Below, one piece after another: positions 3,201 through 54,280 of a stretch of 64,000 bases of DNA. Position numbers and translations under genes: made by a program. The stretch comes from Flavobacteriales bacterium (GTDB lineage: Bacteria; Bacteroidota; Bacteroidia; Flavobacteriales_F; PHOS-HE28). Each line of letters opens with the position of its first letter. The first letter of the stretch is position 1. Location: positions 437,092 through 501,091 of the forward strand of contig JADJOI010000003.1 of assembly GCA_016713875.1 (NCBI GenBank), written 5' to 3'. The notes beneath the pieces are model-generated. The model was not told the DNA's origin and did not search any database. It saw only the letters and a program-made list of their open reading frames with translations.

Positions 3201-3285
3201 GGGGACGTACTACTGGGTGTTCGTCGGGGTCGGCAACGATGGCTCCGAAGTGAAGGAACAAGGTCATGTCACCCTGCTGAGGTGA
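220..3285 (+). CDS. Large secreted adhesin-like protein with PKD-like domain and T9SS type-B (gliding motility-associated, CHU_C-like) C-terminal sorting domain
   Basis: 1021-aa ORF with N-terminal signal peptide (MHRKLLALAALATLSWHEAKA). Cys-rich Ig-like repeats. PKD-like segment (FNWNFGDTTG...YTFNDPGVYIITLNGVSDQGC). C-terminal IPNVFSPNGDGNNDAFEY...WDRWG motif typical of T9SS type-B CTD. Confidence 0.8.
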   Translation: MHRKLLALAALATLSWHEAKATHVSGGEIIYECLGNGEYAFTLIIYRDCFGTTLGTSYDLTLESPCGNQTVTVTQQSFTEVSQLCPNELQNSTCNGGNLPGLEQYIFTGTATVPPCDFWTVSWSLCCRNDAIVNLQQPGNVDGYIETTFNNADYPCEDSPVFTSAPIPYVCLNQPVLYSYGVYDPDGDSLSYALHPALDFGGVPIGYVFPYTANEPITGITLDPLTGLLSFTPNAIGNFVVVVEVTQYDEDGNVIGTVMRDMQFVVIPCTNQAPDPIYCIGNFSGTAVQVSCTEIELCESDNFCFDVVIGDPDLGDTLVVESNVQQNLPGSTLSWTGTNPVTITVCWTAQPGNSGFYPFTITVEDQNCPISAFQTYVFNTNVLQRTSVGPDQTICGPQVANIEADGGANFVWSILPGGDPITPQNFICLDPPFCSQVIADPNSTTTYVVVSDLAGSCINSDTITVAVVSDFSFSLTQSDDTLCLGETAQINVITNPALPGYTFEWTPSLGLSADDIANPIAGYSQPGSYDYSVEVTSPDGCTKRDSSLTLVVLPGFVPDFTVTVADDSFCEGQGTTFTVEIDNSPPIYCGQNFGGCTSGIVADFELGTGTVQGTATSYPAPFGNWYNSTKHQVLIRASELLALGFTGGTINELALNVAAVNGLALYPGWQIHMGCTTLDSLNIDQGFVTGLFPVFGPTDVPVTVGWNNFVLNPGFNWDGVSNVVVEFCFSNYPNGFTQNSPTFATNTGYTSVIYNFTDGANLCDTIPPPFFNQGESADRPNMRFRVCAGVNEDLLTFSWSPTVGLSDPDGAVTNVVPVTSPASYTVTVGDPGLGCFGTATVTTTWDPPADVSFNPLPNEGVAPLDVFFDNTSSGNVVSFNWNFGDTTGTSTEFEPTYTFNDPGVYIITLNGVSDQGCTGFYQDTVIVLPDPIVIIPNVFSPNGDGNNDAFEYADLRGWKSVDMTIYDRWGTKVYAVPQTTTNKVIWKPSSNISEGTYYWVFVGVGNDGSEVKEQGHVTLLR

Positions 3286-3342: not shown

Positions 3343-4980
3343 ATGGCCTGGGCCTGCCTATTTTCGTGCGAAATGCGCACGCTTCGCCGGGGGATCGGGG
3401 TCTGTGCCTGGATGGCAGCCGGAGTCGTTGGCCTGCACGCCCAGGAGCACAGCTCGATGCTGACCGTGCACACGGCTCCGTTCGTGGAGGAGGTGGCCTT
3501 GGCACTGGACTCCGCTGGGCGGGCCATCGGGCAGCCCCCGGCCTATGGGGTGGTGCTTCCCGTGGAGGAGCGGATCGGAACGGAGCTGACCCGGACCGGA
3601 GCAGGCCGGGTGCGGATCTGTTCGGATGGCGCCCTGGCCGTGGAACCCTTTCTGGTGGATGTGCGGCTCGGTCAGGGTGAGCGCCTGGTCCTGCGCGATG
3701 CGAACACGCTTGCCGAAGTGATCGGCATCGACCGGACCGAGGTGCCTGCCAGCGGTCGCGTGGCGCTTCCGCGCGTCTTCGGCCCGTGCTGCATCGTTGA
3801 GGTCATCGGGGGAGCGGATGGTGGAACGGTCGGCACGTTCACGGTGGCCGAAGTGGGCCACACCTTCCGTGAAGTGTCGTGGCAGAAGTCCGATCCGTGC
3901 GAGGTGGATGTGAACTGCACCGAGGGCCAGGCCTTTGCCGACCAGCGTGACGCCGTGGTGCGCGTGGGGGTCCGCGCGAACGGCGCGCTGATCTGGTGCT
4001 CGGGCACCTTGATGAACAATACGGCCCTGGACTGCCGTCCCTTCATCCTCACCGCCCTCCATTGCGGCCTGAACTCCACCGCAGCCGATCTGCAGGACTA
4101 CAAGTTCTACTTCGGGTACCAGCGCACGGGCTGCGGCAGCGGAGCGGCGGACCAGACCAAGTACATCACCGGCTGCCACCGCCGTGCGGACAGCAACGAT
4201 GGAGGCCTGAACGGGTCGGACTTCCTGCTGCTTGAAGCCTACACCAGTGTACCGGCCGGCTTCGATCCCTACTGGGCGGGTTGGGACGCCTCCAGCGCGC
4301 CGAGCGCCAGCGGGGTCACCATCCATCATCCCACGGGCAGCGAGAAGAAGGTGAGCACCTACGCCATGAACCTGCTCACCTCGCAGTGGATCGCAGGTGG
4401 GCCGTACAGCCACTGGTTCGTGAAGTGGACGGCCACGGCCAACGGACATGGCGTCACCGAACCCGGTTCTTCCGGGGCACCGTTGTTGGATACGTTCGGC
4501 CGGGTGATCGGCACATTGAGCGGAGGAACCAGTTGTTGCGTCGAGGATGGCTGTGGGCTGCCCGGTTCGGGCCCGGACCAGCCGGACTACTATGGCAAGA
4601 TGAGCTTCCACTGGACGCAGAACCCCAACACCGCCGCGCAGAAGCTCAAGGCGTGGCTCGATCCGCTCGTCCTGGGGGTGCTTGCCCTGGACGGATCCCG
4701 ATCACCCTGCGCCATCGGCATTGAAGAGCTCTTGGATGAAGACCTTCGCGTGCATCCTGTTCCGGCGCACGACCGGTTCACCGTACGGTGGGAGGCGCCC
4801 GATGAGGAGATGGACCTGGTGCTCTGGTCGGTGGGCGGGCGACCGTTGCGCCGCGTGCGGAGCCGGAACGGGGCGATAATGGAGGTCGGGGATCTGCCGG
4901 CAGGCAGCTACATCCTCACGCTGACAGGCGCTTCCGGTGGACGTGCCTCACACCCGGTGATCCTGGTCGGTACGCCATGA
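3343..4980 (+). CDS. S1-family trypsin-like serine endopeptidase (lysyl-endopeptidase-like) with T9SS type-A C-terminal sorting domain
   Basis: His-motif LTALHCG and Ser-motif GSSGAPLL match the TAAHC and GDSGGP equivalents. Signal peptide. C-terminal about 80 aa (VHPVPAHDRFTVRW...AGSYILTLTG) resembles Por/T9SS CTD. Start could be 3343 or the downstream Met at 3373. Confidence 0.75.
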   Translation: MAWACLFSCEMRTLRRGIGVCAWMAAGVVGLHAQEHSSMLTVHTAPFVEEVALALDSAGRAIGQPPAYGVVLPVEERIGTELTRTGAGRVRICSDGALAVEPFLVDVRLGQGERLVLRDANTLAEVIGIDRTEVPASGRVALPRVFGPCCIVEVIGGADGGTVGTFTVAEVGHTFREVSWQKSDPCEVDVNCTEGQAFADQRDAVVRVGVRANGALIWCSGTLMNNTALDCRPFILTALHCGLNSTAADLQDYKFYFGYQRTGCGSGAADQTKYITGCHRRADSNDGGLNGSDFLLLEAYTSVPAGFDPYWAGWDASSAPSASGVTIHHPTGSEKKVSTYAMNLLTSQWIAGGPYSHWFVKWTATANGHGVTEPGSSGAPLLDTFGRVIGTLSGGTSCCVEDGCGLPGSGPDQPDYYGKMSFHWTQNPNTAAQKLKAWLDPLVLGVLALDGSRSPCAIGIEELLDEDLRVHPVPAHDRFTVRWEAPDEEMDLVLWSVGGRPLRRVRSRNGAIMEVGDLPAGSYILTLTGASGGRASHPVILVGTP

Positions 4981-5391: not shown

Positions 5392-8300
5392 TTACCAAGC
5401 CGCCCGTGGTTCGGCGCCCGGAGCGATCACCTGCACCGGCCCCCCCTTCGTCCGGGCATAGATCCGCGCATCGTACATGGCCTCCACCTGGGCGCCCGGG
5501 AAGTGGTATCGGCCGGTGTAGGCTGCGGTCACCCGCAGATGGAAGACGGCCTTTTGTCCGCGTGCCAGATCGAAGTAGGTCATCACCCGGTCGTCGCGCA
5601 CATCCTGGTAGGTGTAGGGGCTGTCGGTATGGACCTGCTCCAGACCTTCCATGCGAGCGTTCCGGATCTCCCATCCGGAGGGGAAGACCTGCGAGAGCGC
5701 CAGATTGCTGTAGAGGGGCTCGGTGCCCACATGGGTCACCTCCACGTTCACGAGCACATCCGTGCCCTGCGTGAGCACCGCCGGGTCCAACGTGCTGCCA
5801 TTGGTCCCTGTGAAGGTGGTGCGGATGCTGAGCCCATTGGATGACGCGTTCTCCTCGCCGTGACCGGGTGTGCCGTGCCGGGTGATCCGGGTGAAGACCA
5901 AGCCGGTGCCTTTGTTGACCAGATGTACGGTGTGCGGGCGGTCCGGCGTTCCAAGCGCCATGCGCCAGGTCGAACGGGCGCTTCGCACCGTGGTGGGTTT
6001 GCCGTCGATGGCGACGGTGAGGTCGAGACCGTTGCCCTGCCCGTTGGCGGCGGTGTAGCGGGCCACGGCCATCAACGCGAAGGCCGCGCTCTGTGTGCTG
6101 AGCCACTGATCGCTGCCAAGACGCTCGGCGATGCGGAGGACCACGGGGCCGGCCTCGGGAAGACGTCCGCTGCGCAGGAGGGTCAGGGCGATGAGGGCCT
6201 CATCGCGGACCGCGCTCCCAAAGGTGCCGCTCAGTTCGGCGTAGTCCGTGATCCCGGCGGAGATGCCCGTGGTCAAGGCGTTCGCTGCATCGGTCCGGCC
6301 GAGCTCGGCGTAGGCGGCGGCCAGGGTCCACCGGGCCATGGGTTCAAGGGTGGGGATCGACCGAAGACGGTTCATGGCGGCAGGCTCCTCGGCCCCGGCC
6401 AGGGCCAGGGCGAACAGGCGGTAGGCCTGCACGAAGGCCGAACGGCCTTCGGTGGCCGGTGACCACGCCCGGGCCGCGTTGCGCTGCGAAGCGGTCCATC
6501 CGGTGCGCATGGACCCGGGCACGGCGTGACCCAGTCGGGCGGCCTCCAACAGGAAGTGCCCGGCGTAGATGCTGCTCCAGTCGTCCGTATGCGTCCCTCC
6601 CGGCCAATAGCTGAAACGACCGTCACCACGCTGGAAGAACGCCAGCTTGCGGATGGCGGCCCCCACATCGGCCTGCACCTGCTCCTTCAGGGAAGGCGAA
6701 AGGTCAACGAGGCCGTCCAGGTAGAGCTGCGGGAAGGCCTTGGACACGGTCTGCTCGAGGCATCCGTGCGGGTAGCCCAACAGCTCCTGAAGGCGTCGCT
6801 CCAGACCGAGCGGTGGCAGGCTGGTGACCTCGATGACGGCCGAGTTGGTGCCACCGGCGCCGATGGGGACCACGGAGAGGTCCACCTGCCCACCCGCCTG
6901 CACCGCTCCATCCTCCGATCGGGTGATCGGCAACATGGGCGAGCGAACGCCGATGTCGATCCGCGTGGTGGCGCGCTCTGTGCCCGCCAGGGCGGTCACG
7001 TTCACCTGAGCGGCCCCTGTGCGGTCCCCGGCACGCAGCTGGAAACGGACCACCTGTTCCCCGGTGCCGTCGAACCGCACCGCCCGTTCAAGCGGGCCTT
7101 CGCCCGTGACCGCACCGGACAGGCCGACCTTGACCGTGACCTCGCGCAGCAGCTTGTCCATGGCGAACACGGTGACGGGAAGCTCCACCGTCTCGTCAGG
7201 CCCGAGCACACGGGGCAGGGTGGCCAGGACCATGAGCGGCTGGCGCACGGGCACGGCTTGTTCGGCATGACCATAGGCCCCGTCGGGGTGGCTGGCCACC
7301 ACCATCACCCGCACCCGGCCCACGTAGTTGTCGATGGTGAACCGATGGGTGCCGCGCTGGCCCGGAGCCAGGGAGAGGGGACCGGCGTGCAGTACCACGG
7401 GCTTGAACCGCCCGATGCGGGAGGGATCGACCGGCCCGCCACCATCGCTGCCCCCGACGGCCAGCACGCGGCCGGCCTCCACCCCGAAGGCGCCGATCAC
7501 CTGGTCGTACAGGTCGAAGCTGTGCACGCCGAGCGCTTCACGCGCGTAGAGCTGTGCCCAGGGGTCGGGTGTCCGGAAGCGCGTGAGGTCGAGAAGGCCC
7601 TCGTCCACCGCATACAGCATGTAGTGCATGGCACGTCCGCTCTTCTCCGCCACCGTGAGGGTGAACTCGCGCCCGGGCTTGATCTCCGACGGCGCCTCGA
7701 TCACGGGCTCCAGGCGGGTGGCCGGGTCCTCCACCAGGATGGGGACCACCCCATAGAGGCGGATGGGCAGGTCGTTGGCCACCTCACCGTGCGGTTGCAG
7801 CAGCGTGACATGCGCGTGGATGTTCGGCATCATGGCGGCAGTGGCCTTGAAGCGATGGGTGGTGCCGCCTTCGGTCAGTGCGATCCGCGTGATCTCCACC
7901 ACGCGGTGGCCGTTCTCGAGGCTCACGATCGCGGTGCCCTTGTGCGCGGATGGGATGGTGAGCTCCACCTCGTCGCCCGGGGCGTACCGCTCCCTGGCCG
8001 TGCCGATGGCCAGACGGGTGGCCGCGGGGTCCTTGCCGTGCTCCGCCGCATCGGACGTGCCGTCCGCTCCGAAGTGGAGGCTGACGACGGCCACATGGCC
8101 GCTGGCCGGATCCTCCGCGCGGACCAGGTACCGTCCGGTGGCGGCGGCCTCCACGCGCACATCCAGGGAACCACGGCCCTGGGGATCGGTAAGCACATCG
8201 TGCGAGGAGATCACCCGCAGGCCCTCGCCGGTGCGGCCGCTCGTGGGCCCATCCATCGCGCCATGCCACCATCGCTCCTCATCCACCTTCATCACCTGCA

Positions 8301-10965
8301 CCTTCAGCGGACGACCAGGTGCGGGCTTGCCCGCACCGTCCAGGCTCACCAGGTCGAAGCGGTGCGGCCGGCCGGCCAGGTAGGTGTCCCAGGCCCCGTC
8401 CGGTGAGGGAGGCCGCAGACCCGCGTAGGTGCGATAGGGGTGGAGCACCACCTCCTGCTGGTCCGTGCTGGCATCCCCGCCTGGATCGCTCACGCGGCTG
8501 ACGACCGTGAGCCGCAGTGCCGAAGGGGCGCCCGCCGATGGCTTCAGGTCGAAGGGGAAGACCGCGCGCCCCTGTGCGTCGGTGCGCCCCTCGAACACGA
8601 TGGTCTCGCCCTCGGTGAGCTGATGACCGATATCGTCGAACACGAAGTCGTCATGCCCTTTCGGCTTGAACTCGGCCCGGGCGAGGCCCACGGAGACCAC
8701 GACCGGCGCCTGAACGGCGGGAGCTCCATGCAGCCAGACCGCCTCGAGCCGGATAGCACGCGGAAGTTGATCCGCCAGCAGCGGACCGGTGCCGAGGTCG
8801 AGCGCGATCCGCATCCGGTTGGGTTTCACCGTCTCGATGCGCAGCGACCGATGGAAGGCGGCATCGCCCACCGTCACCCGCCCCAGCCAGAGGCCGGTGG
8901 GTGCATCCGGTGATGTGGCGCACGGGAATCCGTACTGGTCACCCACCGCCTGTCGACGCACGGCACGGTGCACGACCCGGCCGTTCGGGTCCATCAGTTC
9001 GAACACCACCGGATGGTCCTTGGGGAGGGCCTTGTCGCGGTCGTTCAGGATGAAGGCCAGATGGAGGGAGTCGCCGGGTCGCCACACGCCGCGCTCGCCG
9101 TAGAGGAAGCCCTTCAGGCCTTGAGGAAGCGCCTCCCCACCCACGTCGAACGCGCTTACATCGAGCGCCGAACCATCATCCACACGCAGGTAGCCGCGCT
9201 GTTCCTTCGATCGGGCCACCACCAGAAAGGGGGTATGCGCCGGGGCCGGCAGTGCGGCGAAACCCTGACCGTCGGTGGTCAGGTGGCCCAGGATGCGCAG
9301 TTGCGGATCGAGCACATCCACCTCCGCTCCGGGGATGGCTGCACCGCTCCGCAGGTCGCTCACCACCACCCGGAGGGCACCGTTCGCGTCGCGTTTGGCC
9401 AGCAGACCGAGGTCGCTGGAGAGCACATTGCGGCTGGTCTTGCGACGGCTGCCGTAATAGCTGGATGAGCAAGGGTTGTCGCGTTCCCGATGGTCATAGT
9501 CATCCGTATACCAGGAGTCGTCATAGTAGTAGTAGTAGCCCGCGCGGTCGAAGGCGCTGTCGTCCAGCGTCGGCGTTTCGGTGCGACCGTTCAGCCCCGC
9601 CTCGGGGGAGGGCGGAGTGCCGTCGCCGCACGGGAATGCGGACTGGTCCTGGCGGAAGCCGAGCTCCACCCGGTGGATGGCACCGGGTTCCGCGGAAATG
9701 AGCTTGTCGAGGTCGAGGAAATAGCGGTTCCATCGTCCGGGATCCGGGGTATCCGAGCTGATGAGGGGCACATCCTGTTCGGCCACCAGGCGCCCCACGC
9801 GGGCCAGCTCCTCGCCACCGGCCAGGTCGTTCACCTGCAGGAATTGCGGGATGTTGTCCGCGTGCACCCGGATGATCCGCACGGTCACCGCGCGCAGGTT
9901 GACGGCCTCGAAGGGGAGATTCCGGCCACCGGTGGTGGGCAGCACCACGCCATCGCCGACGAAACGCACCGCCGGGCCCGGTTCGGGGAAGCGCACACGG
10001 GTGGTCACATCCCGATCGAGGGTGAGGCCAGTGGCGGTCCGAAGGCCCGCAGCCGCGAACACGGTCTGCTCGCCGTGCTGCGGCTCGCTGGGATGAAGGA
10101 TCAGCGTGTTGCCCTCCACGGCGATGCGCATCGGTGGTTCGCCGGAGACGCCGGCCAGGCCGGTCAGGTCCTGGGCGGGGTCGGGCGGCTCGGAAAAGAG
10201 CAGGCGCACCTGCTGCTCTCCATCGAGCAGGGCGCGGGCGCTCAGCAGGGCGAAGCGTCCGGCCTCCGGCAGGTCGAGGCTCGTACGGCCCTCGTCCGCA
10301 CTGCCGATCGCCTCCGCGTCCCAGATCAGGTCCACCACGGTGGCGACGGGGCCTCTGCGCACACTATCGGCCACCACATCGTGCCGCAGCCGGTCCGGCG
10401 AGCTGCTGATGCGCAGCGGCACATCTCGACCGTCCTGCCTCGCGCTGAAGCAGGCCAACAACTGTTCCGCTCGGGCCTGATCGGCCGTGGTCACCTGCCA
10501 GGTGATGCTATGCATGCCGCCGCCGTCGCCGTCCAGCGGGGCCACGTCCTCAAGATCCACGGCGAGGTGTTGCTCGAGGGTGCGGAATCCGAAGCGGAAG
10601 GTGGACAAATGGTCGGGCAGTGACACGATGCCTCCGAGCTGAAAGGTGACCGCATGGTCGGTGCCCGGCCGCAGGGCTTCCTTGGGGACGAATGCGAGGG
10701 TGCGGGCATCGTGCCAGCGCACAGTACCCTCCACAGTGGGATCCAGATCGAAGAGGGAGGCCAGCTTCGTCGCGCTCGTGTCGGTGAGGGTGAGACCCTC
10801 CGCCAGGCGAACGAGCACGGGGGAGGAGGCTGAGACCGGCCCGGCCGTGAAGGCCGTGATGTACGGGGCGAAGGCCGGATCAGGGCGGGGGAGCGGAGGC
10901 CGGCTGCAGGCGGCGGTGAACAGGGCCAAGGAGAGGGCCGTGGGCCAGGACCAGGAACGGAGCAT
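5392..10965 (-). CDS. Bacterial alpha-2-macroglobulin family lipoprotein (YfhM-like, thioester-containing)
   Basis: About 1858-aa ORF. Lipobox LFTAAC near the N-terminus. Thioester motif GYPHGCLEQTV. MG-domain-like repeated beta-sandwich architecture and a C-terminal receptor-binding-like region. Start taken at MLRSWSW (10965) rather than the ORF-track Met at 11013. Confidence 0.85.
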   Translation of the reverse strand: MLRSWSWPTALSLALFTAACSRPPLPRPDPAFAPYITAFTAGPVSASSPVLVRLAEGLTLTDTSATKLASLFDLDPTVEGTVRWHDARTLAFVPKEALRPGTDHAVTFQLGGIVSLPDHLSTFRFGFRTLEQHLAVDLEDVAPLDGDGGGMHSITWQVTTADQARAEQLLACFSARQDGRDVPLRISSSPDRLRHDVVADSVRRGPVATVVDLIWDAEAIGSADEGRTSLDLPEAGRFALLSARALLDGEQQVRLLFSEPPDPAQDLTGLAGVSGEPPMRIAVEGNTLILHPSEPQHGEQTVFAAAGLRTATGLTLDRDVTTRVRFPEPGPAVRFVGDGVVLPTTGGRNLPFEAVNLRAVTVRIIRVHADNIPQFLQVNDLAGGEELARVGRLVAEQDVPLISSDTPDPGRWNRYFLDLDKLISAEPGAIHRVELGFRQDQSAFPCGDGTPPSPEAGLNGRTETPTLDDSAFDRAGYYYYYDDSWYTDDYDHRERDNPCSSSYYGSRRKTSRNVLSSDLGLLAKRDANGALRVVVSDLRSGAAIPGAEVDVLDPQLRILGHLTTDGQGFAALPAPAHTPFLVVARSKEQRGYLRVDDGSALDVSAFDVGGEALPQGLKGFLYGERGVWRPGDSLHLAFILNDRDKALPKDHPVVFELMDPNGRVVHRAVRRQAVGDQYGFPCATSPDAPTGLWLGRVTVGDAAFHRSLRIETVKPNRMRIALDLGTGPLLADQLPRAIRLEAVWLHGAPAVQAPVVVSVGLARAEFKPKGHDDFVFDDIGHQLTEGETIVFEGRTDAQGRAVFPFDLKPSAGAPSALRLTVVSRVSDPGGDASTDQQEVVLHPYRTYAGLRPPSPDGAWDTYLAGRPHRFDLVSLDGAGKPAPGRPLKVQVMKVDEERWWHGAMDGPTSGRTGEGLRVISSHDVLTDPQGRGSLDVRVEAAATGRYLVRAEDPASGHVAVVSLHFGADGTSDAAEHGKDPAATRLAIGTARERYAPGDEVELTIPSAHKGTAIVSLENGHRVVEITRIALTEGGTTHRFKATAAMMPNIHAHVTLLQPHGEVANDLPIRLYGVVPILVEDPATRLEPVIEAPSEIKPGREFTLTVAEKSGRAMHYMLYAVDEGLLDLTRFRTPDPWAQLYAREALGVHSFDLYDQVIGAFGVEAGRVLAVGGSDGGGPVDPSRIGRFKPVVLHAGPLSLAPGQRGTHRFTIDNYVGRVRVMVVASHPDGAYGHAEQAVPVRQPLMVLATLPRVLGPDETVELPVTVFAMDKLLREVTVKVGLSGAVTGEGPLERAVRFDGTGEQVVRFQLRAGDRTGAAQVNVTALAGTERATTRIDIGVRSPMLPITRSEDGAVQAGGQVDLSVVPIGAGGTNSAVIEVTSLPPLGLERRLQELLGYPHGCLEQTVSKAFPQLYLDGLVDLSPSLKEQVQADVGAAIRKLAFFQRGDGRFSYWPGGTHTDDWSSIYAGHFLLEAARLGHAVPGSMRTGWTASQRNAARAWSPATEGRSAFVQAYRLFALALAGAEEPAAMNRLRSIPTLEPMARWTLAAAYAELGRTDAANALTTGISAGITDYAELSGTFGSAVRDEALIALTLLRSGRLPEAGPVVLRIAERLGSDQWLSTQSAAFALMAVARYTAANGQGNGLDLTVAIDGKPTTVRSARSTWRMALGTPDRPHTVHLVNKGTGLVFTRITRHGTPGHGEENASSNGLSIRTTFTGTNGSTLDPAVLTQGTDVLVNVEVTHVGTEPLYSNLALSQVFPSGWEIRNARMEGLEQVHTDSPYTYQDVRDDRVMTYFDLARGQKAVFHLRVTAAYTGRYHFPGAQVEAMYDARIYARTKGGPVQVIAPGAEPRAAW

Positions 10966-11036
10966 GGTACAGGGATGTGCGGCAAAAGGTAGCCGCCATC
11001 GCCTCAACGACAAGAAGCTGCGGGGAATTGCCGGGA

Positions 11037-15402: not shown

Positions 15403-18287
15403 CGCAGTTCGTTGCTGAGGTAACGGGCGGTGTGGCCTCTCCCCATGCGCACGACCTCCTCGGGCGTGCCGCGGGCCACGATGCGTCCGCCGCCATCGCC
15501 GCCCTCGGGGCCCATGTCGATCACATGGTCGGCCACCTTGATGATGTCCATGTTGTGCTCCACGACGAGCACGGTATTCCCTTGGTCGACCAGCCGGTCG
15601 AGCACGGCGATCAGCTGCCGCACATCCTCGAAGTGAAGGCCGGTGGTGGGCTCGTCCAGGATGTAGAGCGTGCTGCCCGTGCCGCGACGGCCCAGCTCGC
15701 TGGCGAGCTTGATGCGCTGGGCCTCGCCCCCGCTGAGGGTGGTGCTGCTCTGCCCGAGGGTCACGTACCCGAGGCCGACGTCCATCAGGGTGCGCAGCTT
15801 CATGGCCAGCTGGGGCAGGTCGGCGAAGTGCTCCAAGGCTTCCTCCACGCTCATGTCCAGGACGTCGGCGATGCTCCGGCCCTTGAAGCGCACCTCGAGC
15901 GTCTCGCGGTCGTACCGTTTGCCACGGCATGTCTCGCAGGGCACGTCCACGTCCGGCAGAAAGTTCATGGCGATCGTGCGCACCCCGGCGCCCTTGCAGG
16001 TCTCGCAACGGCCACCGGCGGTGTTGAACGAGAAGCGGCCGGCCTTATAGCCGCGCACCTTCGCTCCGGGAAGCTGGGTGTATAGCTGGCGGATGGCGTC
16101 GAACAACCCTGTGTAGGTGGCCGGATTGCTACGCGGCGTTCGGCCGATCGGGCTCTGGTCCACTTCGATCACCTTGTCCAGGTGCGCGAGACCGTCCACC
16201 TTGCGGTAGCGCAGAGGCCGCGTGTCGGCGCGGTGGAAGTGGCGGGCCAGGATGGGGTACAGGGTGTCGCCGATGAGGGTGCTCTTGCCACTGCCGCTGA
16301 CGCCGGTGACGCAGATGAAGCTGCCGAGCGGAAGTACAAGGTCCACATCCTGCAGGTTGTGGCCCGAGGCACCGAGCACGGACAGGCGGTGCCCGTTGCC
16401 GGCGCGGCGCAGACGGGGCACGTCAATGGCCAGTTCGTTGCGCAGATAGCGGCCGGTGAGGCTGTCGGCCTTGCGGACCTCCGCGGGCGAGCCCTGGGCC
16501 ACGATGCGGCCGCCATGCTCGCCGGCCCCGGGCCCGATGTCGATCAGGTGGTCGGCCTGCAGCATCATCTCCTTATCATGCTCCACCACGATGACGCTGT
16601 TGCCACCGTCGCGCAGATGGCGCAGGCTGCCGATCAGCCGGTGGTCGTCGCGCTGGTGCAGGCCGATGCTGGGCTCGTCCAGGATGTACAGGACCCCGGT
16701 GAGCTGGCTGCCGATCTGGGTGGCCAGCCGGATGCGTTGGGCCTCACCACCGCTCAGCGTGCGGGCGCTGCGGTCGAGGGTGAGGTACTCCAGGCCCACA
16801 TCGAGGAGGAAGCGGGTGCGCGCGGTGATCTCCTTCACCACATCGCGGGCGATCAGGGCCTGGCGTCCCTGGAGGCGGTCCAGCAGCCCCTGGGTGTGCG
16901 CATGCAAACGGTCCAGTGGCAGGGAGGCGAGCTCGTGGATGTTGAGCCCGTCGAGGCGGAAGTGAAGGGCGGTGCGCTTCAGCCGGGTTCCCATGCACTC
17001 GGGGCAGGTCACCATGTGGGTGAACTGCTCGGCCCACTTCTGGGCCTGGGCCCCGCCTTCCTTCGCCTGCTCCAGGATGAAGGGGATGATGCCCTCGAAC
17101 TGCACGGTGCGGTCGCTCAACCCCACCTGGCTGCTCACGCGGAGCGGCTCATCCAGGCCGTTGAGCAGCGCGGCCACCACATCGTCGCCCATCTCCTCCA
17201 CGGGCGTGTCCAGATCATGCCCGAAGCCGGCGAGCACGGCCTCGACCTGGCGGAAGACCCAGGAGCTCTTGAAGCTGCCCAGCGGCAGGACGGCACCGCG
17301 CCGGATGCTCTTGCCGCGGTCCGGGATGATCTTGCCGATGGCCACGTCGGTGACCTGTCCGAGACCGCTGCACCGTGGGCACGCGCCATAAGGGCTGTTG
17401 AAGCTGAAGAGGTTCGGCTCCGGCTCCTCGTAGGCGATGCCGCTGGTGGGGCACATCAGGTGCCGGCTCAGGTAACGGGGCTGGGTGCCGTCCGGCGGCA
17501 GTGCCATCAGGTTGCCCTTCCCGAGCTTCAGGGCCAGGTCACAGGCATCGGCCAGGCGTTTCCGGCCGGCGCCGGCCTGCCCGGCGGCCGGCACCTTCAG
17601 CCGGTCGATCACCACCTCGATGTCGTGCACCTTGTAGCGGTCCAGGCGGGGGCGCGTGGTGAGGTCGATCACCTTGCCATCCACACGGGCGCGCAGGAAA
17701 CCCTGGCGCAGCAACTGCTCGAAGAGCTCCTTGTAGTGGCCCTTCCGACCTCGCACCACCGGTGCGAGCACGAGCAGCTCGCTGCCGGCATGCTCCTCCA
17801 TCAGCAGGTCCACGATGCGGGCATCGGTGTAGCGGACCATGCGCTCGCCTGTCACGTAGGAGTAGGCATCCGCCGCTCGGGCGTAGAGCAGGCGCAGCAG
17901 GTCGTAGATCTCCGTCACCGTGCCCACGGTGCTGCGCGGGTTGCGGCTGATGGTCTTCTGTTCGATGGCGATCACCGGGCTCAGCCCTGTGATCAGGTCC
18001 ACATCGGGGCGCTCGATACCTCCGAGGAATTGCCGTGCATAAGCGTTGAAGGTCTCGATATACCGGCGCTGCCCTTCGGCGTGCAGAGTGTCGAAGGCCA
18101 GGCTGCTCTTTCCGCTTCCGCTCAGGCCCGTGATCACCACGAGCTGATCGCGGGGGATGACCACGTCGATGTTCTTCAGGTTGTGCACCCGGGCGCCAAG
18201 CACCTCGATGGCGGCATCGCCGTTCGATGGTGCGGTGGCGCTTGCGGTGTCCGCAGCCTCACTGGTCCTGCGCACCTTCCGCGGCAT
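15399..18287 (-). CDS. uvrA: Excinuclease ABC subunit A
   Basis: 962 aa. Two ABC ATPase modules with Walker [11 protein letters not shown] and [13 protein letters not shown] signature LSGGEAQR twice. Zn-finger Cys pairs. Full-length. Confidence 0.95.
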
Positions 18288-19236
18288 CGAAATCAGCGGC
18301 AGGCAGCAGCAGCTCGTAGCGCCGGCCTGCGGGGTTGGACAGGCGCGTCTCGCGCAGCCAGGGGTTCAACAGCTTCAGCACCTTGTAGGAGGTGCCCTGC
18401 TCGGACCCGAAGGCGGCCAGGTCGTTCACGGGCCCGTCCACCACGTGGATCCGCACCTTGTAGGGCGCGTACAGGTCCTTGGAGCGGATGTGGAAGCCGT
18501 AGCGGCCGGGGTCGGCCATGATCTCCTTCATCGCAAGGGCGCGGAACACGTAGCGCGAGGTCTCCTCCGGCAGCAGCAGGTCGTAATAGTCCTTGGCGTT
18601 CTGCCGGCCGATCTGTTTGTCGAGCCCACCGACGCCCAGGTTGTACGAGGCCATGGCCATCGCCCAGGAGCCGTATCGCGCATACGCCTCCTTCAGGTAG
18701 CGGGCGGCGGCGCGTGTGCTCTTCACCACGTTGTAGCGCTCATCCACCTCGGTGTTCACCTCCAGGCCGTACCGCGGGGCGGTGTCCTTCATGAACTGCC
18801 AGAACCCCGCAGCGCCCATGGGGCTCACGGCGTTGGTGAAGCCGCTCTCGATGAGGGAGATGTACTTGAGGTCCTCGGGCACACCCTCTTCAAGCAGCAC
18901 CTGTTCGATGAGGGGGAACCAGCGTGCGGCCCGTTTATGGGCCAGGATGGAATTGCTCTGCCAGTAGGTGTTCACCAGCAGCTCGCGGTCCAGCCGTTCG
19001 CGCACATCGAGCTTCTCCAGCGGTACGCGTTCGCCGCACAGCTCCACGGTGTTCGGCAGGGTGAGGGAGAAGATCTTGTAGCTGTCGTTGAAGTGCCGCT
19101 GGTGGTCAAGGTCGTTGTGCTCCTCGATCACCGCGTACGTGAACAGGTTGGCGCCCAGGACACCCGCCAGCAGAAGGGCTCCCGCCCCGGCGATGCGCAG
19201 GGCATGGACGAGCGGTGTGCGGGGTTCAGTGGCCAT
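18259..19236 (-). CDS. Lytic transglycosylase (SLT domain) protein
   Basis: SLT catalytic motif LIESGFTNAVSPMGAAGFWQFM. N-terminal membrane anchor. Start taken at MATEPRT (19236), 5 bp after the upstream gene stop. Confidence 0.8.
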   Translation of the reverse strand: MATEPRTPLVHALRIAGAGALLLAGVLGANLFTYAVIEEHNDLDHQRHFNDSYKIFSLTLPNTVELCGERVPLEKLDVRERLDRELLVNTYWQSNSILAHKRAARWFPLIEQVLLEEGVPEDLKYISLIESGFTNAVSPMGAAGFWQFMKDTAPRYGLEVNTEVDERYNVVKSTRAAARYLKEAYARYGSWAMAMASYNLGVGGLDKQIGRQNAKDYYDLLLPEETSRYVFRALAMKEIMADPGRYGFHIRSKDLYAPYKVRIHVVDGPVNDLAAFGSEQGTSYKVLKLLNPWLRETRLSNPAGRRYELLLPAADFDAAEGAQDQ

Positions 19237-20338
19237 GTTCGGGGGGGGGAGTGGGTCGTGGGCGCCGGGTGGGCAGGTAGAGCAGCAGGAAGACCGCGAC
19301 GGCGTACAGAACGAAGATCGCCGTGTGAAGGTTCCGCCACACGCCCACGAAGCGCAGGACCGCAAAGTTAAGGAACACGCTGAGGGCCCCCAGCGCACCG
19401 AAGGTGAGGGCCACCTGGGCATCGCTCAGGCCCAGGTAGCTCAGGTGGTGGGTGGTGTGGTCACGGCCGCCCACGAACGGGCTTCGCCCACGCCCGATGC
19501 GGTTGATCGTCACGGTGGTGGTGTCCGCGATGGGCAGCAGGAACACCACGAGGGTCATGATCGCCTGCCTCCAGTGCTCGTCCGCACCGGTGACGGGGGA
19601 GGGGGCGTTCCAGAAGCAGCGGATGCCCACGTAGGCGAGGTAGACGCCCAGGAACTGGCTGCCGGTGTCGCCCATGAACATCCGGCTGGGGTTCCAGTTG
19701 TAGAACAGGAATCCGGCCAGCGCGGCGATGGTGCCCACCAGCAGCACCATGTGGACGCCCTCCACCGGGCCGAGCATCAGGTGCACCACGAGCCCGTTCA
19801 GCAGGATGAAGACGGAGACCACCGTGGTGATGGCGTCCATGTTGTCCAGCATGTTGATGGAGTTCATGATGCCGACGACCCACACGATCGTGAGGAGCAT
19901 ATCGGCCCAAGGCGCGTGGAAGAACCGGATGCCATTGCCCGAGGCGACGAGGAGGGCACCGCAGCCCACTTGGGCCAGGAACTTCAGAACGGGGCGTGTG
20001 TTGTAGGCGTCGTCGGCGAGGCCGAGCAGAAAACCGAGCGAGGTGGCGGCGATGAGGCCCAGGAGACCGGGTTGCCAGAGCGGGGCCAGCGCGGGGAAGA
20101 AGACACCGTTCACCGAGAAGGCGCCGAGGAAAACGATGAAGAAGGCGATGCCGCCGAAGGCCGGTTTATGCGTGGCGCTCCAGCGGACCAGGTCCGTGTT
20201 GTGTTCACGCGAGCCCAGCGTTCGGGCGAACCGCATGAACAGGGAGTTGATCAGGAGCGAGAAGAGGACCGCGGCGAAGAAGAGGCCGGAGTAGATGAGG
20301 AAGAGCTGGGCCGGGGTGTACATGGCCGGGCTAGGCAA
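19226..20338 (-). CDS. Undecaprenyl-phosphate sugar-1-phosphate transferase (MraY/WecA family)
   Basis: About 10 TM helices. Conserved DDxxN-like and NSINMLDNMD motifs of the polyprenyl-phosphate N-acetylhexosamine-1-P transferase family. Start could be 20338 or 20323. Confidence 0.8.
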   Translation of the reverse strand: MPSPAMYTPAQLFLIYSGLFFAAVLFSLLINSLFMRFARTLGSREHNTDLVRWSATHKPAFGGIAFFIVFLGAFSVNGVFFPALAPLWQPGLLGLIAATSLGFLLGLADDAYNTRPVLKFLAQVGCGALLVASGNGIRFFHAPWADMLLTIVWVVGIMNSINMLDNMDAITTVVSVFILLNGLVVHLMLGPVEGVHMVLLVGTIAALAGFLFYNWNPSRMFMGDTGSQFLGVYLAYVGIRCFWNAPSPVTGADEHWRQAIMTLVVFLLPIADTTTVTINRIGRGRSPFVGGRDHTTHHLSYLGLSDAQVALTFGALGALSVFLNFAVLRFVGVWRNLHTAIFVLYAVAVFLLLYLPTRRPRPTPPPEHGH

Positions 20339-20879
20339 GCGTGGGCAGAAGGTCCTTCAACGGAAGGCCGGCCTGGTCCTTGGCGTTCACGATGGGCCCG
20401 GTCACCCCCCAGTCGATCGCGAGGGCGGGGTCGTTCCACAGGAGGGTGCGTTCGGCCGCCGGGTCCCAATAACGGGAGCACTTGTACTGGAAGAGGGTGT
20501 TGTCCTCCAGCACCGCAAGGCCGTGGGCGAATCCCTCCGGGATGAACAGCATCACCGGTGCGCTCTCGTCGAGCCGGATGCTGAAGTGCCGACCCCGGGT
20601 GGGGCTGTCGGCACGCAGGTCCACGCATACATCGAGAACGGCGCCGCGCGCCACGCGCACGAGCTTGGCCTGGGCCGAGGCGCCCGTCTGCAGGTGCAGT
20701 CCACGCAGCACGTTCCGGCGCGATACCGATTCGTTGTCCTGTACGAAGCGCACGTTGAGCCCTGTGGACGCAGCGAAGGTCCGCTCGTTGAAGCTTTCCA
20801 GGAAGTGGCCCCGGTCGTCGCGGTGCACGGCAGGTCGCAGCACCAGCAGGCCATCAAGGGGAGTGGTCTCGATCCGCAT
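20331..20879 (-). CDS. rfbC: dTDP-4-dehydrorhamnose 3,5-epimerase
   Basis: 182 aa. Cupin-fold RmlC motifs (DDRGHFLESF, RGLHLQ, FIPEGFAHGL). Confidence 0.9.
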   Translation of the reverse strand: MRIETTPLDGLLVLRPAVHRDDRGHFLESFNERTFAASTGLNVRFVQDNESVSRRNVLRGLHLQTGASAQAKLVRVARGAVLDVCVDLRADSPTRGRHFSIRLDESAPVMLFIPEGFAHGLAVLEDNTLFQYKCSRYWDPAAERTLLWNDPALAIDWGVTGPIVNAKDQAGLPLKDLLPTLA

Positions 20880-49698: not shown

Positions 49699-50925
49699 GT
49701 GAAGGCCCTCGCGAACGCATATCGCTTCTACGCAGGCTCCTTCGCCGGCTTCAGCCGTTCGATCTGGCTGCTCACGTTCGCCACCTTCGTGAACCGTGCA
49801 GGCACCATGGTAGTGCCCTTCCTGTCGCTCTACCTCACCAAGGACATGGGGCTCTCGCTGGAGGAGGTGGGCTGGATCATGAGCTGCTTCGGTGCGGGAT
49901 CTGTGGTGGGGTCCTGGCTCGGCGGCCGGTTGACGGATCGCATGGGCCACCATCCGGTGATGGTGGGCGCCCTGGTCACCTCGGGCCTGGCCTTCATCGG
50001 GCTGCAGTACGTGAAGGGCTTCATGCCGTTCTGTGCGGGCGTTTTCGTCCTCATGGTGCTCAGCGATGCCTTCCGCCCGGCGCTGTTCGTGGCCATTCGC
50101 CACTACGCTGCTCCTGAGCAGCGCACACGCGCCGTCACGCTCATCCGCCTGGCCATCAACCTGGGCTTCAGCCTGGGCCCGGCGCTGGGGGGCTTCATCA
50201 TCGCCCACGGGGGCTTCAGCGGGCTCTTCTGGGTGGATGCGCTCACCTGCCTGGCCGCGGCCCTTATCCTGTGGACAGGGCTGCCGCGCGTGATCATGGA
50301 CGCAAAGGCGGCCGGTGTCGACGGGAAGGCCGTCGGGTCGCCCTATCGCGATGGGCCCTACCTCTTCTTTCTGTTCATCGTGGCGCTCATCAGCATCCCT
50401 TTCCTGCAATACTTCAGCAGCGTACCGCTGTTCTACAGCCAGGGGCATGGGCTCAGCGAGGAGACCATCGGATTGCTCCTCGGCAGCAACGGTCTGCTCA
50501 TCTTCCTCACCGAGATGCCGCTGGTGCGCTATTGCGAGGACCGCCGCTTCCATGTGCACACCATCCTGCGGGTGGGCGTGCTGCTCCCCGCCATCAGCTT
50601 CGCGGTCCTCAACCTGCTGCCCACGGTGGCCTTCCTGTGGGTCGGGATGATGTTCATGACCGTGGGGGAGATGCTCTTCTTCCCCTTCACGAACCGCATG
50701 GCGAACGAGCGCGCGGACCGTGGCCGGCCCGGGACCTACATGGCCCTGTACACCATCGCGTGGAGCATGGCGCACATCGTCGGCCACAGCCTCGGGCTCA
50801 ACCTCATCGCGTGGGCGGGCTACTCGAGCACGTGGTGGATCTGTGCCGTGGTGTTGGTGGGGTGCGTGGGCATGCTGTACGTGTTGGAGCGGATGATGCG
50901 GCGTGAGCCGGGGGTCAGCACCTGA
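49699..50925 (+). CDS. MFS transporter
   Basis: 12 TM helices. MFS signature-like GGRLTDRMG between TM2 and TM3. Confidence 0.85.
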   Translation: MKALANAYRFYAGSFAGFSRSIWLLTFATFVNRAGTMVVPFLSLYLTKDMGLSLEEVGWIMSCFGAGSVVGSWLGGRLTDRMGHHPVMVGALVTSGLAFIGLQYVKGFMPFCAGVFVLMVLSDAFRPALFVAIRHYAAPEQRTRAVTLIRLAINLGFSLGPALGGFIIAHGGFSGLFWVDALTCLAAALILWTGLPRVIMDAKAAGVDGKAVGSPYRDGPYLFFLFIVALISIPFLQYFSSVPLFYSQGHGLSEETIGLLLGSNGLLIFLTEMPLVRYCEDRRFHVHTILRVGVLLPAISFAVLNLLPTVAFLWVGMMFMTVGEMLFFPFTNRMANERADRGRPGTYMALYTIAWSMAHIVGHSLGLNLIAWAGYSSTWWICAVVLVGCVGMLYVLERMMRREPGVST

Positions 50926-51117
50926 GTTCTGCGAAGCACGGCACCGCGTGTGAAAGTGCCTTTGCTACGGGCCCAGTGCACAGCGCCGGTGGACTTGTCA
51001 GTGCTGCACGATGAAACGGCGCCTCAGGTTGTCAGGGAGGCCAAGTGCCACGGCAACATAGCTGCCGTCGGGCACGCGAGGATGCACTGGCCGGCCTTTG
51101 GTAATAGCACGTTCCTG

Positions 51118-51150
<33 letters not shown>

Positions 51151-51316
51151 GGCCATGCGCGTTGTCACTCCGGGCTTGACCTGGAGGCGCGTCCGGGCTG
51201 TATCGCTGGATGCCTCCGGCTCGCTTCTGATAGTGTGCATCAGACAGGTTCCATCACGTAAGGAGCGGGAATCGGAAGTGGGCGGATACGACCTGCGCGC
51301 CTGCTTGCCGGAGGCG

Positions 51317-51385
51317 GGGGACCTCGAACCCGCCGACTGCCTCCAGCAGGTATATGCGCCAGAGCCTGAAGGAACGCCGCCAAGT
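51317..51385. repeat. Copy of a short intergenic repeat element related to 61363-61435
   Basis: acctcgaacccgccgactgcctccagcaggtatatgcgccagagcctgaaggaacgccgccaagtga versus acctcgaaaccgccgcctgcctccggcaggtaaatgcgccagaagctggtgaccaacgccgccaagta: about 80% identity over about 68 nt. Confidence 0.6.
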
Positions 51386-51514
51386 GATCGCTACGTTCAT
51401 GGAAAAGGCGTAGGGTATGGCGGCATCATCATCCGTGTGGCTCGCTCCCACTCCATGCGGCACCGAACTGATCGGTGTCATAGGTCCGGCTTCAGTCCAC
51501 TCGGAACATTTGAT

Positions 51515-53419
51515 ATGAACTACTGCTTCATGCGCTCATCACGTCCCCCCCTTCTCGCGTTCCTGCTGCTCGCCTCGGCGATGCCTGCCCATGCCCAACT
51601 CACCGAATCCGAACCGAACAACGATTTCGCAACCGCCAACTTTCTTCCGGCAGACACCGTTCTCAGCGGGGTTACATGCGCTGCTCCGGAGACGGACTAC
51701 CTCTACATTGTTCCACCGAGCGATGGGGTGATGCGGATCATCACGAGCATCAGCGCCAACACACCCTCTCCGATCCCGAATGACCTGCTCATCCAGGTGA
51801 TCTCCGATGAGATCCACCACTATGGGGACGGCATTCCCTTGGTGGGTGCGAACGGTGTGCCCATCACGGACACGTCGACCTGGACGTGCATAGCGGCCGA
51901 TACGGTGTTCTTCGTGGTGCACAACAGCACGATGTTCAACGGGTATTGCTACACCTATGAGGTGCGCTACGAAATGACAGCACCGCATTTCAGTGCGGAT
52001 GTGGAACCCAACAACTCCCTGGCCGAGGCCGTGGAGCTGCCGCACGCCACCGATGTGGAGGGACACCTGGGCTTCATCACCGATCCGGCTTATGGTGGCA
52101 GCGATATCTACGACTACTACCGGATCGTGCCTCTTGAGGATGGCGTGCTTCGCGTGATCGTGGAGTCCGAGAACACCGGCGTGCTCGTGAACCCGGTGAA
52201 CATGCACCTGGAGGAGTTCAATGCCCAGACTTTCGAGGTGGGCTTGAACAGTGTGCCGCTGGCCGATACGCTCTACTGGACCTGTCTGCGCGCCGACACC
52301 TTCCATCTGCGCTTCGCCATGCCCACCTTCACCGACTGCGGCATCAGTTACCGCCTGCGGTACGACATTCTGCCGGGGCTCTTCACCACGGAGCAGGAGC
52401 CGAACAATAGCATCGCCGAAGCCGTTGTTCTCCCTCTCGGCACGGATCAGGAAGGCCATCTGGGTTTCCTCCTTGGTCCGTTGAACACCGATTGGTACGA
52501 CTACTACCACATCGTGCTACCGGATAACGGCGATCTGCGCGTGATCATCGGATCGGAGAACGCCGGCACCGTGAGCAACACGGTGAACCTTTCGTTGGAA
52601 GGGGTTTACGAGCAGCCCATCGACATGGGTGTGAACGGGGCGCTATTCACCGATACGTTGTACTGGAACTGCCTCACCCCGGGCTCCTATCACCTGAAGT
52701 TCGCCATGCCTACCGCCACCGATTGCGGCATCACCTACCGCATGCGCTGCGATCTGCTGGCCCCGGTGTATGCCAACGATCCGGAGCCGAACGGCGTGAT
52801 CCCTCAGGCCGTTCCCGCCACAATGGGTGTGCCCGTGGATGGCCATCTGCAGCATGGATGACTCACGAGCGACAACAACGACTACTTCCGCGTGGTGAAG
52901 TCCGATACCGGCCACTTCCGCATCGTTAGCGAAGCCTACTCCCTGCAGGCCGCAGCGCAGCAATTGAACTTGGAGATCGCCGATCACACCTGGACACCGA
53001 TCGCCAATTTCACCGCGCTGATGGGCAGCAACGGAATAGTGTTGACCGATACCAGTACCATCCTCAATGCGCCCGTCGATACGCTGTACATCCGTGTGTC
53101 CATGCAGCCGGGTGCCTGTGGCGCCTACCGATTGTGGTTCACTACGGTCTCAACCGTGGGCATTGCCGAAGCGGAACAGGCGCCGCTCCTTGAGGTGTTC
53201 CCGAACCCGACCGACGGCCACGTCCGGATCAGTTGGCCGGAGGTAGGAGAGGGTACCTTGGAGTTGCACGATGCTACTGGCCGTGTGGTGCTGCAACGCA
53301 ATGTGCGGGCCGATGCCCGGAGCATCGAGCTCGACCTGTCCGGCCTGTCGCTGGGTACCTATGCCTGCATGGTGCGCAATACGGACACCCGGCATTGGGC
53401 GCGCATCTTGCGGGAGTAG
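51515..53419 (+). pseudogene. T9SS-sorted protein with four about 135-aa tandem repeat domains, interrupted by an in-frame TGA at 52859-52861
   Basis: Signal peptide MNYCFMRSSRPPLLAFLLLASAMPAHAQ. Four homologous repeats (EPNN..A..LP...D.EGHLGF.....DYY.IV....G.LR.I). ORF 52892..53419 is in the same frame and supplies the missing end of repeat 4 plus a T9SS CTD (LEVFPNPTDGHVRISW...GTYACMV). Confidence 0.6.
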
Positions 53420-53746
53420 CGCTGTGTTCGCAGTGCGCGTTCCGGCGCCGCAGGGTGGCCGGAGGAAGTCGGATCATCGGCGACCGGCCTCCTCGATCAT
53501 GAAGGCTTAGTGGCTGTGCGGGCAGATGATCTCGCTCATGCGGATGGGCTGGGGTCTGTTGTGTGGGCTTATCGCGGTCATGTCAAGACTAGAGCGCATC
53601 TCAAAAATGCCCTTTGGGCTCCGCGAGGGTCTTTCGCGCCCATGCGTCGCTGTCGAAGCCCTCACAAAGTACCCGACTATGCTCGGGTTCGACGCCTCGC
53701 CTGAACGCGAGATCCCGCTCGCTCGCTACCAAAAGCAATTTTAGAT

Positions 53747-54280
53747 GTGCTCTGGCCTTCGTGTTGCGAGCGCCGTTGTTTCAGCGACGGCGAGCTGTGG
53801 AAGTTGTGGTACACCACCATGCCGTCGGCGGAGGAAATGCGCGCCGAGATCGACCGGCGCCCTGTGCTGTTCCAACAAGGCACCGTGCTATCCTGGGCCG
53901 TGCGCGACCTCACTTCCGGCAAGGTGGTGGGCATGACCACCTTCATGAACATCGAGGCGGAGAAGCCCCGCGTGGAGATCGGTTCCACCTGGTACGCGCG
54001 CTCCGTGCAGCGCACCGCGCTGAACACCGAGTGCAAGTTGCTGCTGCTCACGCACGCGTTCGACACGCTCGGCTGCATCGCGGTGGAGTTCCGCACCAGC
54101 TTCTTCAACTTCCAGGGCCGCCGCGCCATCGAACGCCTTGGCGCCAAGCCCGATGGGATCCTGTGCAACCACATGCGCATGCCTGACGGTACGATTCGCG
54201 ACACCTGCGTGTACTCCAGCCTTCTTCACGAATGGACGGCGGTGCAGGAGAACCTGCTGTTCAAGTTGGGGCGCACTTGA
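53747..54280 (+). CDS. GNAT family N-acetyltransferase (RimJ/RimL-like)
   Basis: Acetyltransf_3-like core (VVGMTTFMNIEAEKPRVEIGSTWYARSVQRTALNTECKLLLLTHAFDTLGCIAVEF). Start uncertain (GTG at 53747 or ATG at 53819). Confidence 0.65.
   Translation: MLWPSCCERRCFSDGELWKLWYTTMPSAEEMRAEIDRRPVLFQQGTVLSWAVRDLTSGKVVGMTTFMNIEAEKPRVEIGSTWYARSVQRTALNTECKLLLLTHAFDTLGCIAVEFRTSFFNFQGRRAIERLGAKPDGILCNHMRMPDGTIRDTCVYSSLLHEWTAVQENLLFKLGRT

Follow-up and report, generated by a model that had tools for sequence, protein, structure and literature searches.

Results

Two ORFs in one frame make up a gene for a T9SS cargo protein

The DNA analysed here is a stretch of 64,000 nucleotides (the window in what follows) of contig JADJOI010000003.1, from a population of Flavobacteriales that has been recovered repeatedly from wastewater metagenomes. 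We describe a gene for a cargo protein of the type IX secretion system (T9SS) that lies between the gene for a major facilitator superfamily (MFS) transporter (49699-50925) and genes for GNAT, LemA and DUF2207 proteins, and that is divided by an in-frame TGA codon. The gene begins with the ATG at 51515, and the upstream open reading frame (ORF) ends ...VPVDGHLQHG at the TGA at 52859-52861; beyond this codon the frame reads LTSDNNDYFRVV and stays open as far as a TAG at 53417-53419, the whole forming one gene of 634 codons in which TGA is codon 449 (Table 1). Gene callers begin a 175-residue ORF at the GTG at 52892, which is in frame with the upstream ORF. In many assemblies this downstream ORF stands on its own as a 'T9SS type A sorting domain-containing protein', and the upstream ORF is annotated alone as a hypothetical protein in NCBI metagenome-assembled genomes (MAGs; P0018). 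A preliminary description of the window had placed the two ORFs in a common frame, and the coordinates and the end of the first ORF that it gave agree with our direct reading of the sequence.

Four repeats were recognised in the fused translation, each of which opens with EPN (at residues 33, 164, 295 and 424), and the stop falls 25 residues inside the fourth. The type A sorting domain occupies residues 561-626 (nucleotides 53195-53392), where the matches to PF18962 (34.9 bits, cut-off 27) and TIGR04183 (26.9 bits, cut-off 23) both lie above the cut-off. The earlier proposals that the downstream part continues the repeat series and supplies the C-terminal domain (CTD) of a T9SS cargo are thus correct, as is the proposal that one nonsense codon parts the signal peptide and the repeats from the sorting domain, which is found solely 3′ of the stop. 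The putative Sec-type signal peptide (MNYCFMRSSRPPLLAFLLLASAMPAHA followed by Q) is homologous to the N-termini of two relatives, P0002 and P0004, which read RSLRPLILLVLF...SGSAQ.

Table 1. Features of the divided gene and of the region upstream of it (positions within the window)
Feature	Position	Strand	Content or basis
Perfect (CA)15 microsatellite, 30 nt	51119..51148		Tandem Repeats Finder (TRF); 366 nt 5′ of the start codon, within an intergenic region of 590 nt
Upstream ORF	51515..52861	+	Signal peptide, repeats 1-3 (aa 33-163, 164-294, 295-423) and first 25 residues of repeat 4; ends at the premature TGA
Putative Sec-type signal peptide codons	51515..51595	+	Inspection of translation; homology to P0002 and P0004 N-termini
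Poly-C run in the signal-peptide codons, C7 in the window	51545..51551	+	Locus alignment
Repeat 4 (aa 424-551), PPC/collagen-binding-domain-like β-sandwich (predicted), interrupted by the stop	52784..53167	+	Repeat alignment, AlphaFold2 model, Foldseek
Premature stop TGA, codon 449, apparently from TGG (Trp), G>A at 52861	52859..52861	+	Codon-level alignment
In-frame continuation: remainder of repeat 4, linker, type A T9SS sorting domain, native TAG	52862..53419	+	Translation, PF18962, TIGR04183

The AlphaFold2 model of repeat 4, which was computed from an alignment of eight repeats, is an all-β sandwich (predicted local distance difference test score 88.2, predicted template modelling score 0.81). 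Foldseek returned the collagen-binding domain of ColH (3jqw_A) as the best match, with template modelling (TM) scores of 0.65/0.70 and 25% identity, and further matches were the collagen-binding domains of clostridial collagenases in 1nqd and 5iku and the PPC domain of a B. anthracis collagenase (5sv5). When a profile of the repeats was compared with PDB sequences, the tandem collagen-binding domain of ColG was matched weakly (E = 0.018), with the motif EPN..A...G.L...D.DY aligned. The PPC family PF04151 gave no match at E ≤ 1 in the fused sequence; it is carried by the distant homologues P0006 and P0014-P0016. These models point to a PPC-type β-sandwich fold of the repeats. With PPC (PF04151) and the domains of ColH (3jqw) and ColG (1nqd/5iku) the repeats share the sandwich (TM 0.65-0.70) and an N-terminal EPN[ND]...A...G.L....D.DY motif; unlike them, the repeats are longer (~130 residues), stand four in tandem with no catalytic domain, and go undetected by PF04151 at the above threshold. 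The reconstructed 634-residue protein, with its putative Sec signal peptide, four PPC/collagen-binding-like modules of ~130 residues and type A sorting domain, has the full architecture of a T9SS type A cargo of the Bacteroidota, as which its orthologues are annotated. When intact, it would present four binding modules in a row, either released from the cell or attached to its surface.

The stop occupies the position of a conserved tryptophan codon

The fused sequence was searched against 5.8 billion protein clusters. P0002, a protein of 641 residues from a Flavobacteriales MAG, is continuous across the stop site and aligns with 97% of the fused sequence at 56% identity. P0003, encoded at locus L004, is a partial relative (72% identity), and P0004 is a relative with three repeats; all three proteins read ...VPVDGHLR[HY]GW[LQ]T... 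over the stop site. The 90% cluster of the downstream ORF includes P0029 (MBK8948431.1, from MAG GCA_016720105.1) and P0030 (from two Logan contigs), which are ~99% identical to the window protein, have Trp at the stop site and both read HLQHGWLTSDNN. Because P0002 aligns through the stop, and because P0029 and P0030 read through it with Trp, we conclude that the two ORFs are one gene.

At the codon level, the equivalent of codon 449 is TGG in loci of two other species (L004, with 72% amino acid identity, and L005-L008, with 56%). It is also TGG in three loci of the same species, L010, L011 and L012, which have the same gene order and nucleotide identities to the window of 99.7% (over 9.7 kb), 98.5% and 99.1%, respectively. 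TGA is carried by the window and by L001-L003 and L013-L023. This alignment indicates that the stop derives from the TGG codon of Trp449 via a single G-to-A transition at 52861. Because strains that are 98.5-99.7% identical to the window keep TGG, the nonsense mutation is recent, younger than ~0.3% divergence. The preliminary description had left three explanations of the stop side by side, namely recent inactivation by mutation, an error of sequencing or assembly, and a rare recoding event, and it had proposed a comparison with orthologues. This comparison supports the first explanation: TGG stands at the site in every continuous relative and in the same-species alleles, and all of the orthologues continue past the point at which the window frame ends.

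A search of the GTDB species representatives returned solely the genome of the 56% orthologue, the species of the window being without a representative there, and an exact-pattern scan of Joint Genome Institute (JGI) metagenome contigs, allowing either allele, gave no match. At L004 (2-1633), P0003 continues beyond the sorting domain with ~90 residues of low-complexity, Arg/His-rich sequence that overlap the next gene (CDP-OH_P_transf), an indication that this copy has lost a stop or acquired a frameshift at its 3′ end.

The TGA codon recurs in independent assemblies

One could envision that the true codon is TGG and that TGA is a consensus error of this assembly, the more so as the window consensus is imperfect elsewhere, with a private T4 in place of T5 at 53735-53738 against 12 other assemblies. 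The TGA, however, is a substitution and no homopolymer indel, and it is repeated exactly in at least 12 independent assemblies, which come from short-read and long-read data and from different samples, platforms and assemblers. Among them are wastewater assemblies of PRJEB8087 made with MEGAHIT, one SPAdes assembly, Logan contigs, a 49.6-kb ENA scaffold and the NCBI MAGs GCA_963853025.1 (in a 2.9-Mb contig) and GCA_016703685.1. The 14 fetched loci that are 98.7-100% identical to the window all have TGA. In addition, the 175-residue downstream ORF (P0026) is indexed in 46 database blocks, and the truncated upstream ORF (the P0001 cluster) is present in many public assemblies. Recurrence of the same substitution across platforms and assemblers rules out an assembly error; this second explanation of the preliminary description was not borne out, and we consider it extremely improbable.

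Relative to the GNAT (Acetyltransf_3) gene as called with 200 residues in L010, L015 and L023, the T4 run itself (TTTT in the window, TTTTT in the 12 assemblies, which belong to the same strain group) puts the first ~20 codons out of frame. A consensus error of the window assembly at this homopolymer may account for it, and the difference between T4 and T5 has no effect on the TGA.

UGA serves as a stop codon throughout the window

A different explanation is that the codon is recoded, i.e., that UGA specifies Trp or Gly genome-wide (genetic codes 4 and 25) or selenocysteine at this site. Code 4 would indeed give Trp, as in the orthologues. We scanned all six frames of the window for coding-like ORFs, defined by their GC1/GC2/GC3 coding signature (G+C content at the three codon positions), and for same-frame pairs of such ORFs around a stop. 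The 39 coding-like ORFs end in TGA (27/39), TAG (11/39) or TAA (1/39), and no internal TGA was found in the window ORFs of 750-1024 codons. Two further same-frame pairs are split by TGA, at 29369 and 33406; each consists of separate genes, with a complete Pfam domain starting just 3′ of the stop (rhodanese in one, and SurE, positions 1-188 of 189, in the other). The G+C content of the window, ~65%, is unlike that of known lineages with code 4 or 25. Stop usage and the separate-gene nature of the other split pairs rule out both codes. With respect to selenocysteine, the RNA fold of the segment 52850-52930, 81 nt that take in the stop and the sequence 3′ of it, was no better than that of shuffled sequences (z = 0.15) and contained no hairpin like a selenocysteine insertion sequence (SECIS), Rfam gave no match at E ≤ 1 over 50800-53800, and the residue at the homologous site is Trp, neither Cys nor selenocysteine; we reject this possibility as well. 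The recoding event of the preliminary description, whether as a code change or as selenocysteine, therefore fell away, and we assign it next to no probability. No tRNA gene was found in the 64-kb window by ARAGORN. A special stop context was also rejected: among 34 ORFs examined for context, 23 TGA stops were checked, of which seven were TGA-C like the present one, and this context is no less common than other contexts among the genuine stops of the window.

A subtler hypothesis is that the stop is leaky, as in a 'pseudo-pseudogene': termination by release factor 2 (RF2) at UGA-C would be incomplete, the near-cognate Trp-tRNA(CCA) would sometimes decode the UGA, and a little full-length protein with the sorting domain would still be secreted, so that the mutation would be a strong down-regulator and no knock-out. 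In PMC9122581, UGA is given as a stop codon known for misreading by tRNA-Trp, and Trp, the ancestral residue here, as the amino acid that is then put in; low-level protein evidence is reported for 101 of 161 Salmonella pseudogenes. PMC7918605 describes in-frame stops in bacterial genes as widespread and often under purifying selection. In all of the TGA alleles that we examined, the downstream frame and the sorting domain are undamaged. There is, however, no stimulatory structure 3′ of the stop (z = 0.15), TGA-C is a common genuine context in the window (7/23), and the four substitutions in the gene within the TGA clade are all non-synonymous. Furthermore, the sister alleles are inactivated by a frameshift (see below), such that the species seems not to need the protein. 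Basal read-through would yield at most a small fraction of the normal protein level. We judge a leaky stop to be quite improbable. The junction-spanning peptide of a read-through product would be VPVDGHLQHGWLTSDNNDYFR.

Alleles that retain the tryptophan codon are frameshifted in the signal-peptide codons

The poly-C run in the signal-peptide codons differs in length among the alleles. It has seven C residues (C7) in the window and in L001, L003, L014, L015, L017 and L020-L023, and eight (C8) in all three TGG alleles (L010, L011 and L012) and in two TGA alleles, L016 and L019, which share two private single-nucleotide polymorphisms (SNPs). C8 is a +1 frameshift; the gene frame is then closed by a stop a short way upstream, with no ATG, GTG or TTG ahead of Met23. 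Because no start codon precedes Met23, the signal peptide is lost in the C8 alleles. The C7 frame is ancestral, with RSSRPPLLAFLL... aligning with RSLRPLILLVLF... of P0002, and the orthologous locus L005 reads CGC CCG CTC at this position and has no run. Neither P0029 nor P0030 begins at the true N-terminus.

Every sampled allele carries at least one disabling lesion, and two alleles carry both. A lesion-free allele of 634 residues was found in none of the 16 members of two protein clusters, and neither the search with the fused sequence nor another with the C-terminal 235 residues gave a further cluster above 90% identity. On any tree, the state of the poly-C run has changed at least twice within at most 1.5% divergence. 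One tentative interpretation, from simple parsimony applied to a slippage-prone tract, is that C8 might have been ancestral to the sampled strains and TGA a second hit on a gene already frameshifted.

Substitutions in the gene were also compared across the haplotypes. We counted 11 non-synonymous and four synonymous changes over 1442 and 457 sites, respectively, which gives a ratio of non-synonymous to synonymous rates (dN/dS) of ~0.87; the corresponding counts in the flanking genes are 28:31. These sequence counts would fit relaxed constraint, without significance. In the TGA clade, the 185 codons 3′ of the stop show no additional lesion and no more than a single substitution (V632L), as expected for a very young pseudogene.

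Two length-variable tracts raise the possibility of a contingency locus

The (CA)n microsatellite upstream of the gene is the only period-2 array that TRF detected in the 64-kb window. Its length varies among assemblies that are 99.9% identical: it is 30 nt in the window, 32 nt in L015 and 34 nt in L001, L014, L016, L017 and L023; in L011 it is 24 nt with interruptions, and the orthologous locus L005 lacks it. The Bacteroidetes −7 motif (TAnnTTTG) was not found in the intergenic region around the tract. The region between the MFS and cargo genes of L011 (a Logan contig with the TGG allele) holds many of the differences of that locus from the window, and the adjoining MFS gene (2124-3680 of L011) is called with 518 residues there as against 408.

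One could propose that the gene is a contingency locus, in which the poly-C run, and possibly (CA)n, toggles a surface protein by slipped-strand mispairing, and that TGA is a 'locked-off' variant that has spread; selection by phages or grazers acting on an exposed binding protein would be one example of a cause. Homopolymer and dinucleotide contingency loci reportedly switch surface-protein genes in Neisseria, Haemophilus and Campylobacter (Moxon et al. 2006, cited in PMC9122581). The present gene resembles such loci in having a homopolymer in the 5′ coding region of a gene for a surface or secreted protein, with length variants (C7 and C8) that change the frame between near-identical strains, as in phase variation, and in having a polymorphic dinucleotide repeat upstream. 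C7 and C8 differ between strains that are 98.5-99.9% identical, and this difference is homoplastic with respect to the SNPs and the TGA; (CA)n has at least four length states; C/G runs of at least seven nucleotides number three in the whole window; and both tracts are absent from the orthologue.

Several observations speak against this hypothesis. A run of seven or eight C residues is rather short for slippage to be efficient, and the host is a free-living wastewater bacterium. The likeness to known contingency loci is no more than a resemblance. The states of both tracts are known from consensus sequences alone, and consensus assemblies conceal mixtures of C7 and C8, or of TGA and TGG, within populations. 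The (CA)n tract lies 366 nt from the start codon, in a region that has no TAnnTTTG motif. Among the TGA alleles, C8 is restricted to the one subclade with the two shared SNPs, which fits rare ordinary indels. Finally, a contingency locus would leave the nature of the TGA unchanged, i.e., a nonsense mutation. We regard the hypothesis as unlikely. Its more specific form, in which a T9SS-delivered, adhesin-like protein is switched in wastewater Flavobacteriales and the TGA is either locked off by phage or predator selection or leaky to tRNA-Trp, appears to us slightly less likely still.

The longest homopolymer of the window is a G9 run at 19241-19249, within the ~200-nt overlap of two open frames on the minus strand. 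The frames belong to two different genes, for an SLT transglycosylase (18259-19425) and a Glycos_transf_4 protein (19226-20356).

Other genes of the window

A second T9SS cargo gene, at 220-3285, encodes 1021 residues with a PKD domain and a CHU_C type B sorting domain; it is intact and ends in a TGA stop. It is followed in the same frame by an ORF (3343-4980) that matches Trypsin_2 weakly. The presence of this second cargo gene, together with the Flavobacteriales label of the source MAGs, lends indirect support to a putative T9SS machinery (PorK/L/M/N, SprA/Sov, PorV and others) in the host genome. On the minus strand, 5392-11013 encodes a bacterial alpha-2-macroglobulin of 1873 residues with MG2, MG3, MG5, MG6, bait-region and MG10 domains, and this gene ends in TAA, unlike every other coding-like ORF of the window.

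Discussion

T9SS cargo proteins cross the inner membrane by Sec and are recognised in the periplasm through the CTD. On this basis, the 448-residue product of the TGA allele could cross the inner membrane, without the tag that the T9SS needs, and the downstream 175-residue fragment would have the CTD without a signal peptide and would begin in the middle of a β-sandwich. Neither fragment would be deliverable to the surface or the medium, and the allele would be null for the normal location of the protein. A T9SS cargo has its signal peptide and CTD on one polypeptide; in the TGA allele the stop places them on different ORFs, and in the TGG alleles C8 removes the signal peptide. Because the TGA allele would be unable to bring the protein to the surface or the medium, we interpret the gene as a young pseudogene, and because the TGG strains are frameshifted too and no lesion-free allele was found, the gene is probably dispensable in the species, or else selected against or switched off. 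Taken together, we think it likely that the TGA is a genuine and recent nonsense mutation that is widespread in the population.

Four observations weigh against this conclusion or temper it. First, the downstream part is fully open, with a sorting domain that remains above the cut-offs of Pfam and TIGRFAM; such a part fits a young pseudogene and a gene maintained by read-through alike. Second, misreading of the UGA by tRNA-Trp would restore exactly the ancestral residue. Third, no other lineage has been assembled nearly as often as that with TGA, and the lesion is thus at least not harmful. Fourth, the contrast in substitutions between the gene and its flanks is not significant (Fisher p = 0.089), and the counts are small.

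Alternatively, the TGA might have brought about a gene fission, with a periplasmic three-module protein and a CTD fragment that is initiated separately from the GTG at 52892. The two separate proteins that gene callers and NCBI list in many assemblies would accord with such a split. The 175-residue fragment, however, starts in mid-module and lacks a signal peptide, which would put it beyond the reach of the T9SS, as this system takes periplasmic substrates; moreover, all of the orthologues are continuous, and the split is younger than 0.3% divergence. We therefore think that gene fission is highly improbable.

A young pseudogene at this locus would have much in common with the nonsense pseudogenes described for Salmonella ('pseudo-pseudogenes', PMC9122581) and in the survey of in-frame stops (PMC7918605). 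The likeness lies in strain-level polymorphism and intact relatives, in the open downstream frame with the halves annotated as two ORFs, and in the single G-to-A transition from sense to stop, a class of mutation that PMC9122581 describes as typical. Unlike the Salmonella alleles, the window allele dominates an uncultured environmental population and does not belong to a host-restricted pathogen, and its sister alleles have a second, independent lesion. What we describe is a within-species loss of a secreted binding protein through two independent lesions, which as a phenomenon is ordinary.

For annotation, the result means that the 'hypothetical protein' and the 'T9SS type A sorting domain-containing protein' of several MAGs are best treated as one disrupted gene. 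It also illustrates that a stop suggestive of recoding, where the homologous residue is Trp, can be resolved through comparison of alleles across public assemblies. If the two tracts were indeed switching elements, contingency loci would be extended to environmental Bacteroidota. For the organism itself, the loss hints at selection against this surface protein, or indifference to it, in activated sludge.

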